A DNA stretch of 58,819 bases, counting the filler, from Sluysia triapertura (taxonomy: Eukaryota), in the NCBI GenBank assembly GCA_046118255.1. It is 5 parts of 5 records of this genome, joined end to end, with 100 filler letters (N's around TTAATTAATTAA, not from the genome) between each part and the next. Parts side by side here need not be neighbours in the genome. Positions count along the whole stretch, not along the records: positions 1 to 11,164 come from JBJNIA010188056.1; 4 more parts are not named here. One strand, written 5' to 3'. Of the stretch, positions 1 through 55,395 are shown piece by piece (the first letter of the stretch is position 1; each line of letters starts with the position of its first letter). The position numbers and the translations under genes are program-made. The notes beneath the pieces are model-generated. The model was not told the DNA's origin. It saw only the letters and a program-made list of their open reading frames with translations, and ran no database searches.

Positions 1-519
1 TGGTTATAATTTGTCTTTAAAGAATAATTTACTTTCTTATAAAGAATAATTTGTATTGTTATTGTTATAAAGAATAAATGGTATTGTCATAATTTATATC
101 TTCTGGTTGTAGTTTTGTGATAATATAACAAATATATCGAGATTTTGAGTTTTTTAGTTATTGAGTTCTAATCTAATAATTTGGGAAAATAAAAGTGATA
201 AAAGACACAGCACATTGATTGAATATGTAAAGGCATTTCTTACTGAATTATAAAAGGATGATGATATGGAGAGAAATTTGGATAAAATTTTGAATTTAGA
301 TTTAAATATGTTTAATGTACAGAGTATGAAACCGAGTGAAGCCAACAATCCTCATCAATATAAAGCAAGAAAATCCACACATTGAAACCAGCGATAAGGA
401 GACAAATACAATTAAAAGAAAGCCTGATCGCCCCAGAAAGAACGAAGAAGATATTTTGATAGCACTGAATACTGTTCGAAAAAACGTTATAGATTTGACA
501 AAAAATAATATACGAAAAT

Positions 520-915
520 GAAGAAGAAATATTAGATTTGGATACAAAAAACATAGTTTATGCGTTTTTATCTAATACGTTACAAAATTCAGTAAATATA
601 AGAAATTATTATCCAAACTAAAGGACTATAGGAATACAATAATAAAACTTATAAAACATTTAGAAGAGAAATATAAGGACAAAGATGTTGGTGATTTTAT
701 AGAGAATGGACAGTATAAATCAATTATTAATAAGAAACTTAGTAAGGGAATAAGCAGAGAAAGATTTAAAATAATTTTAGCTTACACCGTGTTTCAATGT
801 ATTAAAGAAAGGATAACTGATAAGAATAAAATAAATAAGGTTATAGATTTTGTTAATAAGAAAACAAAATTACAGATTGAAGAACAAGGAGGATGGAAAA
901 ATATAATTAAAGGAA
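520..915 (+). pseudogene. Bcl-2-like domain remnant (one frameshift near 575-590)
   Basis: DTKNIVYAFLSNTLQ (541-585) resembles BH4 (Bcl-w DTRALVADFVGYKL). In the open frame 576-1145, LIKHLEEKYKD sits in the BH3 position, KLSKGISRERFKIILAYT aligns to BH1 (ELFRDGVNWGRIVAFFEFG) and IEEQGGWKNII aligns to BH2 (IQDNGGWDAFV). Order and spacing fit; the NWGR motif is degenerate. Confidence 0.55.
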
Positions 916-1049
916 AAGAGAATCAAAAAATTGAAGAAACGTCAAATTTACTTGCAAATTTATTCGGAAACAATGATATGTTAAATACAGCTATACCACG
1001 ATTAGGAAATTCAACAAACAATATGCTCTTCGTGATAAACAACAAAACA

Positions 1050-1985
1050 AAGTCTTTAAAAAAAGTCTTTAGTGTATATCAAGAAGGAAATTTGATAGCA
1101 GCACTGGTTAGAGAATTTATGGTAAAAAGATCAGTGGCGATATAGTATTGTTGTCACCATAGTCATTCATCGATAATAGAATTAAAACCATTTAAGATTC
1201 TGCCCAATAATTGTAGAAATGCCTTCGAAACCGGTTATATAGGATTAGTCAAAGGAGACAAACTAAGAGTGAGAAATAATGAAAAATATTATTTATAATA
1301 TTAGAACTGCCGGAAACGTACTAACAGATAGAACATGCGAACAAGGATCTATAGAATACGAAGGGAAAATATATCACAATGTTGTAGCCCAAGAAACTTT
1401 GTAGTAAGTTTAAAATCTTTAATGAGAGTTTTGATATTGAAAAATGCACAATTATGTCTAGATCATTTTGTAGAATGGACCAAACAAGCTGTAATACAGG
1501 TAAATCCACTTTAACATACGAATTAGATAAGTTCCAGTGTCCTGTAATATTCTTGAAACAAATAAAATTTAATTTAGTATCAGGATTTGTCTAACAGAAT
1601 AATGACAATCAACCAATTGAAGAAATAAAGAAAGAGGAACAAGTAAAGCATTAGATCAAGTAGAAACTCCAACCATTATAATGGCTAGTAAGGAAAAAGA
1701 TGGATTGATTTTCATATCAAAGGGAACGATAATAAAATGCGGAAAAGAAATTATCGAAACCAACTACCAAGGTATTTACCTGTCTGAAAAAATAATATTA
1801 CAAGCCAAAAAAGGAAGAGATTCAAAAAATATAAAATTAAATAGTTATTTCAATAATAAAATAGACTTCTACTACCATCTTGGGTTAATGCCTTTGGAAA
1901 AAATTATCAAATTATGATTGCTCGAGATTATCAGCTGAACAAAGAAATACTACTTACGAAACTGGCAGTGGCCATCATTAATCAC
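1050..1985 (+). pseudogene. Chuvirus-type (class III-like) envelope glycoprotein remnant with stops and frameshifts
   Basis: Ordered motifs across frames: VYQ..VREFMVKRSVAI*YCCHHSHSSII, NCRNAFETG, AGNVLTDRTCEQGSIEYEGKIYHNVVAQ, C..SFC..C..TYE..QC, KCGKEIIETNYQGIYL, NIKLNSYFNNKIDFYYH, QLNKEILLTKLAVAII. These match remembered chuvirus G / retroelement-captured G motifs (YCGMHSH, AG..dG.C..W.NVVVQ, CG...TEHP.L, dl..Y.NsKf.y). Confidence 0.7.
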
Positions 1986-1989
1986 TGAA

Positions 1990-3790
1990 AACCAACTAAC
2001 CAAAGAAGAACAAGGGAAACTTGCAAAACATTTCTCACACTTATCAGGAGTCACAGAAGACGCTACACACATCGTTGGAGTAATGAGAGCTGTATGTGAG
2101 ATAGGACAAAATAAAGTTGAAGTAAAATTAAGAGTAATGAAAAATTGTTATTCAAACAGGACTATCGATGACGATGACGTCTATGTTGACGAACCATTAT
2201 GGTTATTAGGCAGAACCGAATACATAATGCCATCAAAAACAAATAATTCATTAACTGGCCGAATTATGTTCATAGCTTCAGAGAGCAACCAAGAAAAATT
2301 GGATATAGGTATTTCTGATAACTGTGATAACTGTAATAACTGTGAAGGAAAGATAACTGTCGAATTATAAATTATACGAAAGATAATAAATGGTTATTTA
2401 CGGGAACTAAATTAAGGAGGATTGTTAATTACAAAGTACCAACACATATTAACGTAGTAACAAATGCGAAAAATAACACAATAAAGTTACAACGCAATAC
2501 ACAAGAGAAAGATTATGGAAAAATTAAATTAACAACAAAAAGAACAACTATACGAAGTTATATATAGTTATCCTAGAGTAATCTCAAAAACAAATATGAT
2601 ATTGGGGATTCCGTAATTATAAAACACGAAATACCACTAACAGAAGATAGCCATTACGGATGGAATATTAAGATTTAAAAACAATAATGATGAGTGGAAA
2701 ACCATCATTCCAGAATTATTAATTATACCAATATTAATACAGTTCCATGATGGTCAATTATGAGGCCATCTGTCAACAAGGAAAACCTTATCGAGAATTA
2801 AAAGTAAATATTATTGGGAAAACATGGAATCGGATATCAGAAAAAGGGTGAAAGGATTGTTCAATATGTTGTCGACGTAAAAATACTGTCATTGAAACCT
2901 ATGCCAGTACCATTATCCCCAATGGAATTTACCGCTATGAATATTATGGGTCCTCTTCCAGTGACTATCAATGGTAATAAGTATATAATTGTATTCGTGG
3001 ATTATCTGACAAAATGGTCCGAGACTTACCCGATGCCGAATCAAAAAGCCGAAACAGTGGCACAAATATTGGTGGAAAAAATCATTTATAGTTACGGTAA
3101 GGCCTCGCAAATTATTAACAGACCAAGGAACTAACTTTATCAGCGACGTAATCAAATTAGTAGCTAAATTTTTAATATTCTTCGGATTTACACATCACCT
3201 TATCATTCACAAACTGATGGTGTGGTGGAACGCTTTAACAGAACTCTTATTAATATGATTCAATCTTACGTGAATGTTAGACAAACTGACTGGGACTTAT
3301 ATATAGCACCATGTCTTTTTGCATATAGAAGTTATGTACACCCAGCAACTAATTTCACTTCGTTTTATCTAATATACATTTGACGTTCTAACATGCCAGT
3401 AGATTTAGAATTGGTACCACCTACTTCACAGTACTTAGAAATTCCGGAATACGTTACAATAATGAGAGAACAATTACCAGACGCATGGAAATGGGCAGAT
3501 CTTCAAATTAAATATTTTCAAGAAATATATAAAGACACATACGATAAGACAGCCAAAGAACATACTTTTAAAATAGGTGATGAAGTATTGATAGATTATC
3601 CAATAACTAAACCAGGCCAATCACCTAAATTACATAAACCTTTTAAAGGGCCTTATTTAATAACAAAAGTTACTGATACAAATGTGTTCGTTAAAGATCC
3701 TAGTAAAATTAATTCTGAAACTTTTGTAGAACGCGTCAATAGGTGTAAAATTGCACCACAAGAATAATATAACTTAAGAAGTAGAAAAGT
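1990..3790 (+). mobile_element. Ty3/Gypsy pol remnant: partial protease, RT/RNase H deleted, integrase
   Basis: Protease-like LSGVT..IVG..V. Pre-RT motif DIG..IKHEIPLT jumps directly to the integrase zinc finger (FHDGQL*GHLSTRKT..YYW). Integrase core: MGPLPVTINGNKYIIVFVDYLTKW..TDQGTNF..SPYHSQTDGVVERFNRTL. C-terminal FKIGDEVL..KLHKPFKGPY (ORF 3393-3767), then YNLRSRK. Confidence 0.93.
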
Positions 3791-4477
3791 ACAAAAGTCA
3801 AAATTGAGAGTTCAACCAAGACACAAAGACCGAGATAAACCACCTTCAATTCATGCACTATGACATAAACAAGTAATATTCATGATACATTCCCATGGAA
3901 ATGACCTATCTCGTATAATGCAAAATGTACAGTTCAATGGGCGGTACTATTTCAGTAGTTCATAAAAATTTTCTAACTCCTTGGGAGTCAGTGTTTATAA
4001 ACAGACCCCAAGTAATAACATATAGTGTTAATCAAACACAATAAATATCAACGGAACATTACTATGCTACGTAGAAGTAGTAGGACAACACTTACAAGAT
4101 CTAGTAAATGTTTGGGATAGCAGCCCATACGAATTGACATTAGTATGGATGTTATTAATAAATTGGAAGAATGATGATCCACAGCAAATATGGTTTCATA
4201 AAAATACCACCAGGGTCAAATATGATTATACCGCAATTAATAATTCCACAATTCGGTGATGAATTAACCTTATATCAAATACCAATTTCAAATCCGCCAC
4301 TACCGGATATCGTCGATTATACACTTCATTTATCAGATGTATCATGGGGATCACCATCAACAGTCACATCAGAAGAGATTTCGGATTCATCAAGAATTGG
4401 CTCTGAAGTTCTAGATACAGTAATGATAATGACAAATGTAAGAAAAAGATACTGCTTCAGTTAGAGAATATTTTAAG

Positions 4478-5402
4478 AAATTAACTTATTGGGTTTACAT
4501 ATTATTTATAATTTTCCTATCACTAATAACCAACACCATGGCAACAGAAACGGATGAAGAGTACAAAAACATGAATATTGCGATAAATTATGGTGGATAA
4601 ATAATGATTACCGATATTTAACATCAATACTGGAAGTTCGAAATCATTTCTAAGAAAATGATCTTACGACATAAATTTGAAATCTGCTGTATCTATATGA
4701 AAACCACATCATATAAACGGTATTCCACATTGTTTACACTATGGTTATAGACCTGTGTTAATAACTTTCCTTGGATACCCAAAGAAACACACGATATATT
4801 TGGAAATTTAAAGCATTTGGAAAATAGAGAAACAACGGAAGCACCAACAACTTTATCCACTTATAATACAACTAAGAATCAGATAGACAATCCAAACAAC
4901 TCGACTAAACAATCTTATAAATTCTTTATACTAATAATAAAAATCTTATTATACCAATGTTAATTACAATAATTACGGTAGTTCAATGTCATGAGCGTTC
5001 TTTTAAAACCGAACATTTCGAACATTGAAGTAAAGATTAGAATATTGAACCAAAACATTCATGCTAAATTTGCTTGTTTAAAACCTGCCAGACTTAATTT
5101 TAGTTCATGGATAATATATGAAAATTATATTAACGGTGATTTGAAATACCCAGTCACGGTATGTTCAGACATACTACCTATCGAGGATAGACTTATTATT
5201 GTGAAAATTCGTCATTCATTAAAATATTTGCATTTTGAACTTAAAGGAACAAGAAAATACTTAACGATATTGGTTAATATTGCGGAACGATCCGGAATTG
5301 GTAATATTAATAGTAGCAGCAATACTATTTGTAATTGCTCTTGCTATAGTGATATTAATGATTATTATGTTTATATCGAACAAATGTCGATACCCATGTT
5401 GA
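4478..5402 (+). pseudogene. Degenerate type-I membrane protein ORF downstream of integrase (env-like candidate 1)
   Basis: Signal-peptide-like YWVYILFIIFLSLITNTMA at about 4487-4543, a Thr-rich linker, ORF 4991-5479, and a strong TM helix in an alternate frame, ELVILIVAAILFVIALAIVILMIIMFI (5295-5375). Confidence 0.4.
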
Positions 5403-5605
5403 CGCGCATACAGTTCCACATCGAAACACTTACGCTACAAATAATCAAATACTACTTATATACGGAGACTGGCAAATGACTCAAGAAAAATCTACAATCT
5501 TGATATGTATTAATCTATCTTGTATATCAAGTACGTATATCAGTAAACACCATACCTAGAATAATTTTAGTATCTACTCAAAAAGATGTTTATACTAGAA
5601 TATTC

Positions 5606-6424
5606 ATGGATAAAATTAAGTTATTTTCTGTTCAAATAAAATGTTGTATAATGGATTGGCGTGAAACTGAAACAAAGGCAAGTAAACAGGATTTCTACTG
5701 GTTTATAGCCTACATCGATCTTGCTGAATACCAACTAATTAGTGTAACAATAACTATGGAACTGGAGTATGATTCTCGGAGTGACTCAAAAACTATTTTA
5801 ATACGATACTGTAAAATAAGAACTAAGTCATTTATTTTTCAACAATCGCCGACACACAAGGCTAAGACTAAATCAAATGTCTCTAAGAAGTCATCAACAC
5901 TAATTGAATTTCGAATGATCATTTACCGTTATACTGGAAACGTCGTACGCATCCATAACCTACTACACGATAATACATTATTGATTGCCTATGAACTAAT
6001 TGATGGCGTACGTTGTGGACTGATATTGCCAAATGATACTATTCGTTTATATCACCTTCCTGGTAATAAACTAATAAAAGCGGAGATACAAAACATAAAA
6101 GGATTTTGGCCGACAATCAGGTATCATTATGTGCAAATACCTGTTATAGATAAATGCGAAAAGGACTTGATTATAGAACTAGCAAAAAGGCTTAAGATTT
6201 ATAATAATTCGGCAGTTACATCTCGTGTCATGAGCACAAATGCAAGTCTAAAAATTACGAATACTAATAAAAGTTTAAGTAAAATCAATAAGGAATACCC
6301 ATCACTGACTTAATCCAACAATAATTTCATTATAATTGGTAATTATATTTTACTAATAGTTTTACTAGTGACAATAACTATAAATTTTATCATCCTAAAG
6401 TTTTATCTATTTATAATCTATTAA
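5606..6424 (+). pseudogene. Second membrane-anchored ORF of the retroelement 3' region (env-like candidate 2)
   Basis: 235-aa ORF followed, after a frameshift, by IGNYILLIVLLVTITINFIILKFYLFIIY* (about 6335-6424). Same strand as pol. Family not recognised. Confidence 0.4.
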
Positions 6425-6697
6425 AATATAGATTAGGTGTATTGCATAATTGACCATATGTAATAGCTTTACCATTCAGTTTGGGTCATATATGATATTA
6501 AAATTACAAGGATTGTGCAACTGACTGTATGCGATGGTTCGCCAACTTAAAATTTGTATCTACTATTAAATTTAGGATTTTTAAGTTTTAGGTTTTTTAA
6601 TTTAAATTGTTAATATTAATAATTTATAATTAATTATTTCATTCATTTTAATTGAAACTATCTTTTGGAAAATTCATTTTTGATATAAAAAAATTAA

Positions 6698-7175
6698 TCA
6701 AAGAACAAAATCATCTGAATTAGAAAAAAGACAATGAGCAGCATATTCTACAGCAGAAAAATTAGCTTTTTCATTGTTTCTAGCAAGCTCAGATAACCAA
6801 TCAGATTCTGATTTCTGTTTTAACGTAACAATTTTATTAGCTTGTGTAGTTGTTTGAGAATGTTTTGATCGATATAACTTAACAATTTTACGATATTTGG
6901 CAACAACTGGATGAATCCAAGATGATTCGTTGGTAATAAAATTATAAAAGAATGGTTCTGAATCTTCATTCTATAATATTAATAAATACACTTAAGTTAC
7001 AAACCTGAATTATAATTATATAATTTGGAATTTCTTTAACGATGGCTTCTTTAGCTAAAAACATAAGATACTGCTCTGTAGCAGTATTAATTCCCAAATA
7101 TGCCGCAAATTTAAATAAATCGCATTCAGAATACTGATCATCAACAATTTCAGTATAAATAATTGAATTATTCAT
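6698..7175 (-). CDS. Small CEP164 N-terminal-like / WW-domain protein, 2 exons (7175-7005, 6970-6698), 147 aa
   Basis: FAAYLGIN..EQYLMFLAKEAIVKEIP..PFFYNFITNESSWIHP..KYR matches the CEP164 N-terminus (YARYIGIDP..LLWLAREG..P..YYFNF..S.WDHP..YR). A phase-0 GT-AG intron of 34 nt (7004-6971) joins the frames. Confidence 0.75.
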
Positions 7176-14818: not shown

Positions 14819-15760
14819 TTGATTGGACGTCCAATCAATTGCTGTATTAACATTACGAGTTTATATGTGATTTAAAATAAAGATATCGCTGAGAGGCACA
14901 CTAATAACCGTCATCAGTCAGCAGTTTAAAAGTTATATAGACTGAATTATAGTAGCTAACAAGAAAATTAGCTAATTGAATAAAGTAAAATAACAATAAT
15001 AATAATGTTACTATTATTATTAAAATTATAAAGTACATAAATCTTTTGCTTCTATATAACAAGATCTTTCTTTTTAGCTTCTTATTTTCTTGACATAAAT
15101 GAATAACATTGCATAAATAATATTCTCTTTTATCTATGTTGTCTTATATTTATCTAGATAAATTTTGCAACACAAGTTTCGAATCTCGTTACTCTTGGAA
15201 AGGAATTTATCAAGTAATTAACAAAGTGTGGATTATAGAAAATGTTTAGGGAAATGATTACTAGTTAAACTGTTTGAGAAATGCTATTTTGTTTGCAATG
15301 TCTAGAATTGGTTTCAGAGTATTAATGGTATTAGAGATTATAAACTTGAAATGTTTTGAATTAAATTTTGAGATGTAAATTTAATAATTTGAAATGTAAT
15401 TGTGATTCTAATGTTAAAAGATAATGAATGAAATGTTTTAAATGCATTTTTTAAATGTAAATTAGTGGTTTTAACTGAAGATACGGTATAGATCTTGAAA
15501 ACTTGTGAACGTAAGTGTTTTGAGGTATATAGATCTGGAAGAAATAGAATATGAAAAGATTTAGATGGAAAACTAGTTGAAATGTTATGGAATGTGTTGA
15601 ATTATTTTTTTAATGTTTCGATTAATTTTTTGAAGTAATGTGTGATCTAAATGCTATGTAATTTTGTCTAAAGCGTTTGAAAATAAAAAAAATTCGTGAA
15701 ATATTGTGAAGGGCGATTTTGTAAATAAAATTTGTTAAAAGTTATAGGTTTGCCACCATA
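14819..15760. repeat. Dispersed ~0.9-kb repeat, copy A, headed by a 20-bp palindrome TTGATTGGACGTCCAATCAA
   Basis: Alignable by eye with 51513-52320 and 54431-55395, e.g. ttgaaatgttttgaatt..gatgta..tgtaattgtg..taatgtta.aagataatgaa, and tatagt.gctaacaa. Confidence 0.8.
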
Positions 15761-23825: not shown

Positions 23826-25138
23826 TGCATGATGATTTTATTACACAATGTATTAACACCGATGTAAAATTAATGCTGTTTTCAACGTATGTCTCAACTG
23901 GTGTTTTATATCATTCTATGATGATAATCGAAACGAGATAAAAAGATAAAGAATTTTCTTTGATATTACGAACTAGTGATAGTGTAAAGATTGTTAATGA
24001 TTATACTATGATGTTGAGAACTGAAGATTTTAAAGCGTACAGTTTGTTCTTATTAAAGATGTTATCTGAAGAAATAAACAATCTAATATTATCTTTAAAT
24101 AAAGTCATTAATAGCTACAAGATGGATGATTTGTATTCATTTGTGTTTAAATCAACTCTCAATATTAATATAAACTGTTGGAATCTAATTGAACTAAAAC
24201 GTGAATTCTTAAATTCCCTAGTATCAGAAAAATGGGCCCACCTTCCAAAATCGTTATGGTCTAATAATTACAATCATGGTAAATATGTTATGATTCCATT
24301 TAGTGCTAGTTATGAAGATAATTTTATATCACCCAGAATGCATGTTAATAATCGTTTTTTAGTTTTAGCGTATTATCATGAAAGAAATGGGTCTAGTTTA
24401 ATTCGATGTAGTCAATATTCAAACGTGACATTAAAAATGAGTTTCATTGATCCGATAACTAAACTATTGCGACATCAATATGAATTTATGAAATTAAGAA
24501 TAACAACCGCTCTAATTAAAACTCCAATATTAGAGAGTAAACCATTCAAGAACAATGATTGCGTAATTGATATAGTGAGAAATATGCAGACAGACCTTCG
24601 CAAGTTAGTTGAGGTCGAAGATGATGACCACTACATTAATGTATCCAATCAGAATATATGTCGATATTTATTACGAGTAGCCTCCAGTAACTGGCACGTC
24701 CGAATACTAAACCTAATTCTAGTTAGTCAAATTTTAGTTCAATCGATTTTGAGTCATCCTGGTATGACCTACGTATTGATGAGTGAAACAAGATATGATT
24801 ACGAACTGATTTTGTCAAGTATTGTACAATTAATTTCACTACCAGATACTACAACTACACAACGAAGTCATCAATATATCTTGTCATTACGGAAAGACAC
24901 AGGTACAGTCGCAAACAATTTTTATGAATATTTATGTAATTTCAATTCTGTTAGTTTTAAATTGATTTGTTTGTCTAATTACTTTTTAGTTATTCAAAGA
25001 AATTACTGGATGGTGAAATACTGGCGAGTAGGATATGAAGATCGTTATGATGCAGTTGTTGATAATTTTCAAATTTTTCAAACTAGGGAAATAAAATTTT
25101 ATGTTCAAAAATTTTATTTGTTTAATAATAAATCTTAA
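23826..25138 (+). CDS. Myotubularin-related pseudophosphatase (inactive MTMR-like); may be a pseudogene
   Basis: NNRFLVLAYYHERNGSSLIRCSQ ~ RNRIPVLSY.H.NGA.L.RCSQP. SSNWHVRILNLI. YVLMSETRYDYELILSSIVQLISLP replaces HCSDGWDRT..SLAQLLLDP, so there is no CX5R. Frameshift between ATG 23826 and the 392-aa ORF; downstream conserved blocks look deleted. Confidence 0.75.
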
Positions 25139-45208: not shown

Positions 45209-45280
45209 ATATTGGTAGCTCAGTGGTAGAGCATTCGAACTGCGCAGCGATGGTCCCGGGTTCGATCCCCGGTCAGTCCA
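45209..45280 (+). tRNA. tRNA-Ala(TGC)-like pseudogene or SINE head
   Basis: Intact A box/D arm TAGCTCAGTGGTAGAGC and T arm CCGGGTTCGATCCCCGG; TGC at the anticodon position; TTTT terminator. The anticodon stem and first two acceptor pairs do not pair. Confidence 0.6.
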
Positions 45281-51512: not shown

Positions 51513-52320
51513 GATTGGACGTCCAATACCAATCATTAATTGGGCGTCCAATACCAATCATTAATTGGGCGTCCAATCAGGCTATACCAAATATGATCTG
51601 AATAGTGTCTCATCGGTAGACAGCAAGCATGAAATATTGAATTGGCTTTAATTGATCTGTCTACTGATGACATATAATGAATGAAGTTTGGTTGTTAGGC
51701 CAGTTAAAATACTGGTGACCAAATTAAAATAAATGATTACATAATAAAAATGCGAAAGCGAAATAATTAGATAAAATAAAATAATATTATTATTAAAATT
51801 AGTCAAAACCAAATGCACAAACTTTGTCTTTCTTTTTCTTACATGATCTTCCTTTTGTAAAATCTTTTTTCTGAACATATTTTCTGAAATATTAATAAAT
51901 TTAATAAAAAATATAAATGTGGCTAAAGATGTTAGAGAAATTGATGAATGGATATAATTGAGGAGGTTAAAGAATTTTCATTTTAATGCAGTGTTTTAGA
52001 GTTGAATTAAAGATGAAATTTTAAAGTTTTTTAAAGATATAAAAGTTGCAAATGTTGAAGGATTGTGACTTTGAAATGTTTCAAATTAATTTTGAAATGT
52101 ATATTTGGTACTTTGAGATGTAAAATTTGATTCTAGTGTTGTGAAATTATGTGTTAAAAATGTTTTAATGATATATGAAATGTACATTTAATGGTTTGAA
52201 TGTAAGATGTGATTTTGGTGTTGTAAAATTGTAAATTTAAAATGTTTTGAATTGAGCATAGTTTTAATAGATCTTAAGAAAAAAAGGTATAGAAAAAGGT
52301 TTTGATACTTTTTAAAAAGG
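51513..52320. repeat. Dispersed CCAAT-palindrome repeat, copy B, head locally triplicated with 25-bp period
   Basis: attggacgtccaat, then (gtccaataccaatcattaattgggc)x2 and gtccaatcag. Body aligns with 54690-55150. Confidence 0.8.
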
Positions 52321-54667: not shown

Positions 54668-55395
54668 TACAATGAAAATAATGCATAACTTTTCCCTTTG
54701 TTTTGTTTACATACACTTTCTTTTATACAACTTTATTTCTCAACTTATTTTCTATAATATTAATAAATTGATAAAAGGTATTGATGAAACTAAAGATGTG
54801 AGAGGGATTAATGAATGAATGTAGTTGTGGAAGCTAAAGAATTTTCACTTTTAAAGCAGTATTTAGAGTTGATACTGGAATGAAATTTTAAAGTTTTTCA
54901 AAGATATAAATGTTGTAAATGTTGAAAGATTGTAAATTTGAAATGTTTTGAATTGCTTTTAAGATGTGCATTTGATAGTTTAAGATGTAATTGTGCTTTT
55001 AATGTTACAAGATAATGAAAAAAATGTTTTAGCCGAATTTTTAAATGTAGATTGATGGTTTTGACTCAAGATAAAGTTTGGATGTTGAAAGCTTGTGACT
55101 TTAAAGTGTTTTGAGGTACGAAAATGGTTTTAGTGAATTTGAAAAAAATAAAATATAAAAGGTTTTAATAGAAAAATAGGTAGTGTCATGGAATGTGGTT
55201 TTATATGCTATATGTTAGATTAAATTTGCAATGTTTTGAATTAATTTTTTAGGTACATGTTTGATGATTTTGGATGTTATGAAATTTTGTGTTTAGAATG
55301 TTTGAAGGTATTAAGAATTGTAAAATGTTCTAAAGGATTATTTTTTTGTGTCGTGATGAAATAAAATTTTTAAAGTAATGGGTTGACCACCACAT
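54431..55395. repeat. Dispersed CCAAT-palindrome repeat, copy C
   Basis: 18-bp palindrome TGATTGGACGTCCAATCA at 54478-54495, partial second copy at 54431. Ends gggttgaccaccacata, like ggtttgccaccata near 15748. Confidence 0.8.

Follow-up and report, generated by a model that had tools for sequence, protein, structure and literature searches.

The window, a stretch of 58,819 nucleotides of Sluysia triapertura DNA, very probably holds a single copy of a Burro-type Ty3/gypsy LTR retrotransposon (a GAG-ENV-POL errantivirus) that has decayed and lost internal sequence through two large deletions. An earlier note on this DNA had described a chuvirus-like glycoprotein joined directly to a Gypsy protease fragment; the remnant we describe here extends past the coordinates of that note, with a Bcl-2-like domain upstream and a spacer and an integrase downstream. 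As far as sequence comparison tells, the link between envelope (env) and protease is native to one element, since four relatives are single open polyproteins that match the env and the integrase of the window in order. The odd junction between the two would thus reflect decay rather than a new viral capture.

An envelope remnant without its distal half

Three-frame translation revealed glycoprotein motifs distributed over all three plus-strand frames from about 1040 to 1985. By itself, one of the 16 ORFs scanned (1621-1914) matched the Pfam family PF24664 (Monjiviricetes_fusion) weakly, with E=0.0034 and 15.8 bits against a cut-off of 27. When we built a profile from the envs of nine relatives (668 model positions), it identified four domains in order, covering model positions 23-348 of 668 on window positions 1041-1985 (iE 2e-26, 1e-16, 1e-15 and 7e-6), while the best match in the reversed-window control had E=2.6. 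This confirmed the series of ordered glycoprotein-like motifs ending near 1985 that had been noted previously. Profile, Pfam and the fold of the relative P0003 together place the N-terminal half of a gB/chuvirus-type class III env at 1032..1985 (+), where it lies in five pieces in frames 3, 1, 2, 1 and 3; the frame changes four times, and two stops interrupt it.

The distal part of env (model 349-668) was not found in the window by the same profile. In 9 of the 11 relatives scanned, distal env contains a hydrophobic segment, which lies about 207-215 residues past the last shared motif in the seven relatives for which this motif could be placed. Over 991-2400, none of the window frames attained the threshold for such a hydrophobic anchor, confirming the lack of a transmembrane anchor reported in the earlier note.

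In addition, we examined the predicted fold of the glycoprotein, using the relative P0003 rather than the window sequence itself. The AlphaFold model of P0003 (pLDDT 70) matched chuvirus-type G at E 2e-40; its match to herpesvirus gB (E 9e-14) had a TM of only 0.27-0.32 and an rmsd of 20 and is therefore a match at the domain level. In sequence, P0003 was 17-22% identical to the seven top-scoring viral folds. The proposal of a chuvirus- or gB-like glycoprotein is borne out by this fold together with the PF24664 family. Based on sequence and on the model of P0003, the env is predicted to be a chuvirus/gB-type class III glycoprotein, carried as cargo of the element.

Gene order in related polyproteins

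A HMMER search with frame 1 of 1276-2367, in which stops were replaced by X, retrieved 30 proteins at E<=0.001. Two of these, P0018 and P0025, were unrelated repeat proteins and were set aside. Pfam scans covered 18 of the 30 proteins, with 12 short ones left out, and PF24664 was present in 15 of the 18 (E from 7e-11 to 3e-95), while one protein had no family. In 8 of the 15 env-bearing proteins a protease follows env in the same ORF. Four proteins (P0007 and P0009, as well as P0033 and P0035, which came from a cluster look-up) have a single ORF that runs from env through at least one protease, RT and RNase H to integrase. All four matched the env pieces and the integrase of the window collinearly in tblastn. 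The window was 34-43% identical to the relatives in the env piece and 45-51% in the integrase, compared to 35-54% and 53-84% among the relatives themselves, so that its env and integrase identities are no more discordant than those found among relatives.

Upstream of env, P0016 displayed a Gag zinc knuckle followed by weak ubiquitin-like (E 0.03) and Bcl-2 (E 0.055) matches, P0003 and P0012 carry a Bcl-2-like domain ahead of env, and a zinc knuckle precedes env in P0010 as well as P0016. We detected no gag in the window, which opens inside the element. As the relatives show, the intact element is one long ORF that leads from (Gag) through the Bcl-2-like domain and the gB/chuvirus-type env to one or several proteases, and on through RT and RNase H to integrase. 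According to established Ty3/gypsy biology, the protease of such a polyprotein presumably processes it, and reverse transcription would copy the element and spread env along with it.

Several relatives carry more than one aspartic-protease unit in one ORF: P0010 has four after env, P0007 has three, and P0035 (4844 residues) contains seven D-T-G motifs, five before RT and two after integrase, plus C2H2 and ankyrin matches. The available part of PMC6431247 mentions one protease for Burro. P0009 appears in the databases as HBK71150.1, a hypothetical protein from a Flavobacteriaceae MAG, and most likely represents animal DNA binned with a bacterium. Word-based protein searches, from which proteins >2000 residues were excluded, returned nothing for P0001 or ORF 1621-1914 and only two proteins for alignment A1. 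A search of metagenome contigs yielded no relative.

A predicted Bcl-2-like domain upstream of env

The stop-free frame 576-1142 continues into the start of env. Its first 155 residues matched the pre-env region in three relatives out of 11 (E 8e-5 to 8e-4, a level reached by 0 of 200 shuffles), which are exactly those with a pre-env region ending in a GGW motif, and the same three relatives match Pfam Bcl-2 (best 2e-5). The window piece alone gave no Pfam Bcl-2 match, and single-sequence PDB and Atlas searches of 576-1040 likewise returned no match to Bcl-2. A broad pre-env profile, our first attempt, reached only iE 0.098, and a four-sequence profile retrieved mostly Bcl-xL chains at E 0.03-0.1, ranked behind one designed helical protein. 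Folding 576-962 as a single sequence gave a poor model (pLDDT 46), with which the fold search was uninformative. By way of the three relatives, we place with moderate confidence a predicted Bcl-2-like domain (BH1/BH2-like end) at 633..947 (+), in frame before env. A second match to the Bcl-2-like region was also observed after the integrase of P0033, albeit weakly (E 0.67).

Positions 1..575 (+) appear to be an upstream part of the same repeated element, displaying high summed contig depth and weak matches to the N-terminal regions of relatives, the best of which (E=0.004 over 14 residues) is at 414-455. A short basic motif at these positions, before the Bcl-2-like domain, is common to the window and three relatives. 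Since the window begins inside the element, gag and the 5' LTR are out of view.

The env-protease junction and a probable first deletion

A protease profile constructed from 22 protease units of eight relatives (116 model positions) matched 1975..2151 (+) at model positions 20-78 of 116 (iE 4e-5; best in the reversed window 3.5). This stretch is the middle part of a retropepsin-type protease, without the catalytic motif and the C-terminal end. The match begins about six residues past the D-T/S-G aspartate, in agreement with the previous description of a protease fragment that lacks its catalytic motif and lies directly at the junction. The remnant was undetected by Pfam alone; the best single protease match, to P0013, scored 57 compared to a shuffle mean of 23.

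In the relatives, the first protease aspartate is found about 330-420 residues past the last env motif kept in the window (593 in P0012), whereas the protease remnant of the window starts a dozen codons past this motif. Judging from this difference in spacing, the first deletion would have removed distal env, the anchor and the N-terminus of the protease, amounting to at least about 320-410 codons, and more if the surviving protease is a later unit; the estimate derives from proteins that are 35-65% alike rather than from an intact DNA copy of the same genome. Positions 1975-1985 belong to both the env match and the protease match, each in a frame of its own, and this short overlap may suggest a microhomology-guided deletion. 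As a lesser reading, the anchor-less form of env could be shared by a non-autonomous subfamily.

Missing RT and RNase H, and the downstream region

Profile searches showed that 2158..2651 (+) is homologous to the protease-to-RT region of relatives, comprising the spacer and the first RT-region residues (iE 8e-5 and 2e-7; tblastn to P0033 1597-1685). The spacer had no Pfam dUTPase match; the published call of a dUTPase-like domain in Burro used HHpred. An RT/RNase H profile gave no match in the window, and nothing of either domain is left from about 2651 to the zinc finger of the integrase (P0033 1685 to about 2190). This loss of about 500 codons would represent a second, separate deletion. A Ty3/gypsy integrase, with H2C2 zinc finger, core and C-terminal region, follows at 2653..3824 (+) and is broken by stops and frame changes. 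It matched Integrase_H2C2 (PF17921, E=1e-12) above the cut-off, and the identity to the four relatives given above extends over about 300 residues. The pol order in the window is thus protease, spacer and integrase, with RT and RNase H deleted, and the full order is present in the four relatives. Stops and frame changes have accumulated as well, so that the window copy makes no functional protein.

Beyond the integrase, 4002..4241 (+) may be a further protease-like remnant, matched weakly (iE 0.004) by the protease-to-RT profile; D-T-G motifs follow the integrase in P0007 and P0035. A less repeated tail extends over 4242..6550, with a summed depth of 400-25,000 compared to 27 at 6787-7000, and gave no match to relatives, Pfam or the Atlas. 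Among the repeat families listed for the window there was no LTR-like direct repeat. Two long stop-free frames, 4982-5479 and 5504-6313 (+), lie after the integrase in moderately repeated DNA. Neither had a significant match to Pfam or relatives, nor did ORF 5504-6313 in the Atlas, and they are possibly accessory ORFs of the element or part of another repeat.

Genomic setting

The window is a gapped eukaryotic scaffold (616 N) and is AT-rich, with 16-33% GC per kb. One sequencing run holds part of 300-4500 (share 0.36) and may be the source sample rather than independent support. In this run, the whole stretch 1-3978 is highly repeated: contigs reach a summed depth of 15,000-172,000, against 27 at 6787-7000, and the repeat family comprises 11,046 contig pieces, of which 4,421 are <90% alike. 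Summed contig depth is not a copy number; it shows high repetition and diversity on both sides of the junction.

Elsewhere in the window we observed a divergent myotubularin-like ORF of 398 codons at 23942-25138 (E=1e-8), a tRNA-like sequence between two N gaps at 45209-45280, just above the Rfam gathering score, and copies of another diverged repeat, 70-85% alike, at 51898-52123, 54765-54990 and 15341-15508.

Alternative origins of the junction

A deletion or a recombination at about 1980 might have joined two copies, or two subfamilies, of one Burro-like family that lay in tandem or were nested. This family shows great abundance and diversity in the run, and the nearest relative is P0033 for the env piece but P0013 for the protease piece. 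However, the low protease scores do not resolve subfamilies, all parts occur in the order of one reference polyprotein, so that one internal deletion suffices, and RT and RNase H were removed by a second deletion of the same kind. We therefore regard such a fusion as improbable. Of the two options offered in the earlier note, an element with env upstream of pol is supported by the collinear polyproteins, combined with a deletion at the junction, whereas the fusion of two different nested elements is not.

We similarly give little weight to an assembly artefact, in which a collapsed repeat was stitched together from different copies. The scaffold is gapped, its sequence here is extremely repetitive, and none of the contig pieces listed reaches across the junction, but a hole among contigs proves nothing, and the copy has many letters of its own compared to the other contigs of the run, as an old single insertion would. 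Loose contig ends were found at 1038, 2148 and 2362 and none at about 1985 among the best 6 of 1619 loose ends; likewise, none of the 15 joints listed, of 148, falls at about 1985.

It is very improbable that a chuvirus glycoprotein EVE was inserted independently and came to lie beside an unrelated Gypsy element, or became fused to it. Among viral folds, those nearest to P0003 are indeed chuvirus-type glycoproteins, and fragmentary Gypsy sequences have been found beside Jingchuvirales G in arthropods, without clear capture (PMC10084718). In contrast, the closest sequences to the longest env piece are retroelement polyproteins (33-47% identical), compared to the far lower identity between P0003 and the viral folds, and the env is in frame with the Bcl-2-like domain, as in the relatives. 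Furthermore, no relatives were found in viral contigs. The collinear polyproteins largely refute this explanation, and the earlier view of a chuvirus EVE in its own right is not supported, the env being native to retroelement polyproteins.

Finally, there is hardly any room for a BEL/Pao element of the Anakin or Tas type, although mosquito Pao elements carry a chuvirus-derived G (PMC7642597). Peptidase_A17, DUF1758, DUF1759 and DUF5641 are marker domains of BEL/Pao elements. They were matched by 0 of 18 relatives at E<=0.01 and 0 of 11 at E<=1, and were not found in the window pieces either, while the relatives match the RT_RNaseH and Integrase_H2C2 families. Among solved structures, the profile of the relatives comes closest to Ty3 Gag-Pol (E 1e-44). 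The pol is thus predicted to be Ty3/gypsy and not BEL/Pao, as the earlier note had favoured.

Host and significance

Taken together, these results point to one decayed Burro-type copy which, as a dead member of a highly repeated family, has little significance alone. They indicate that the Bcl-2-env-pol layout with a chuvirus/gB-type env forms an abundant family in the Sluysia triapertura genome, and that, in genomes of this kind, a chuvirus-like G is as a rule cargo of an element and does not testify to a recent chuvirus infection. Most likely, a triclad flatworm is the host. The copy would matter more in any other host, a rather unlikely case in which a Burro-type element would have been amplified elsewhere through wider ancestry or horizontal spread. 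An apoptosis-regulator domain, the Bcl-2-like one, fused to a gB-type env would then be massively amplified in another animal lineage. This runs against the view of Burro1 as planarian-specific in PMC13465017, a paper that cites its expansion in freshwater as well as land planarians.

Comparison with known elements

Anakin, a Pao element with a chuvirus-derived G in mosquitoes (PMC7642597), carries the same broad class of glycoprotein on an LTR element, with a BEL/Pao pol there and a Ty3/gypsy pol here. Jingchuvirales glycoproteins and their EVEs have Pfam PF24664 and the nearest viral folds in common with the env described here, at only 17-22% identity to P0003, and our scans of window ORFs showed no viral N or L gene. 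The lack of a clear Gypsy capture in PMC10084718 has been superseded by PMC13524379, which describes GAG-ENV-POL Ty3/gypsy elements with a gB/chuvirus-like env in flatworms, nematodes and bryozoans.

Supplementary file 1 of PMC13524379 includes six Schmidtea elements, Smed_errantivirus_1-6, in the group Platyhelminthes_C1a. Compared by eye, all six Schmidtea ENV rows in supplementary file 2 share the VYQE-type start and the TP..KC..TNY.G.Y.S end of the window. In the part of this file covered, these domains I-II motifs were not seen by eye in 18 nematode rows or in the insect rows compared. Smed_errantivirus_1-6 thus resemble the window element in their Ty3/gypsy pol, in a gB-type env upstream of pol and, by eye, in their env motifs, but are intact copies, unlike the window copy. 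The name Burro has 0 occurrences in the main text of PMC13524379, and that Burro is a GAG-ENV-POL errantivirus is an equation we infer. The link of the window element to Burro most probably holds, based on architecture and on the motif comparison by eye.

The closest likeness in layout is to the giant Ty3/gypsy elements Burro and GYPSM1. Planarian Burro polyproteins comprise Gag, ubiquitin/SUMO-like, BCL2-like, env, PR, dUTPase-like, RT, RH and IN domains (PMC6431247), and the domain order of P0016 is the order given there. The window and its relatives share with these elements a single ORF in which a Bcl-2-like domain leads in frame into env, with protease and spacer next and then RT, RNase H and integrase, and Burro has a very high copy number, like the family in the window. 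Of the further Burro cargo, relatives display the weak ubiquitin-like match in P0016 and the ankyrin match in P0035; Gag, BIR, MATH, ankyrin and LTRs of Burro are not within the window, and its dUTPase-like domain was not detected with Pfam. Unlike Burro, the window copy is a remnant of 4-6 kb with half an env and neither RT nor RNase H, and decayed fragments with stops and frameshifts are described for one planarian species in the same paper. In the available part of PMC6431247, the Burro env is compared with gypsy Env and with fusion proteins of mononegaviruses, and gB is not named. The paper places this env "between BCL2 and PR" and describes it as the first case of an env that lies in frame between gag and pol, so that the Gypsy-linked chuvirus-type G, which the earlier note considered notable, is real but already known.
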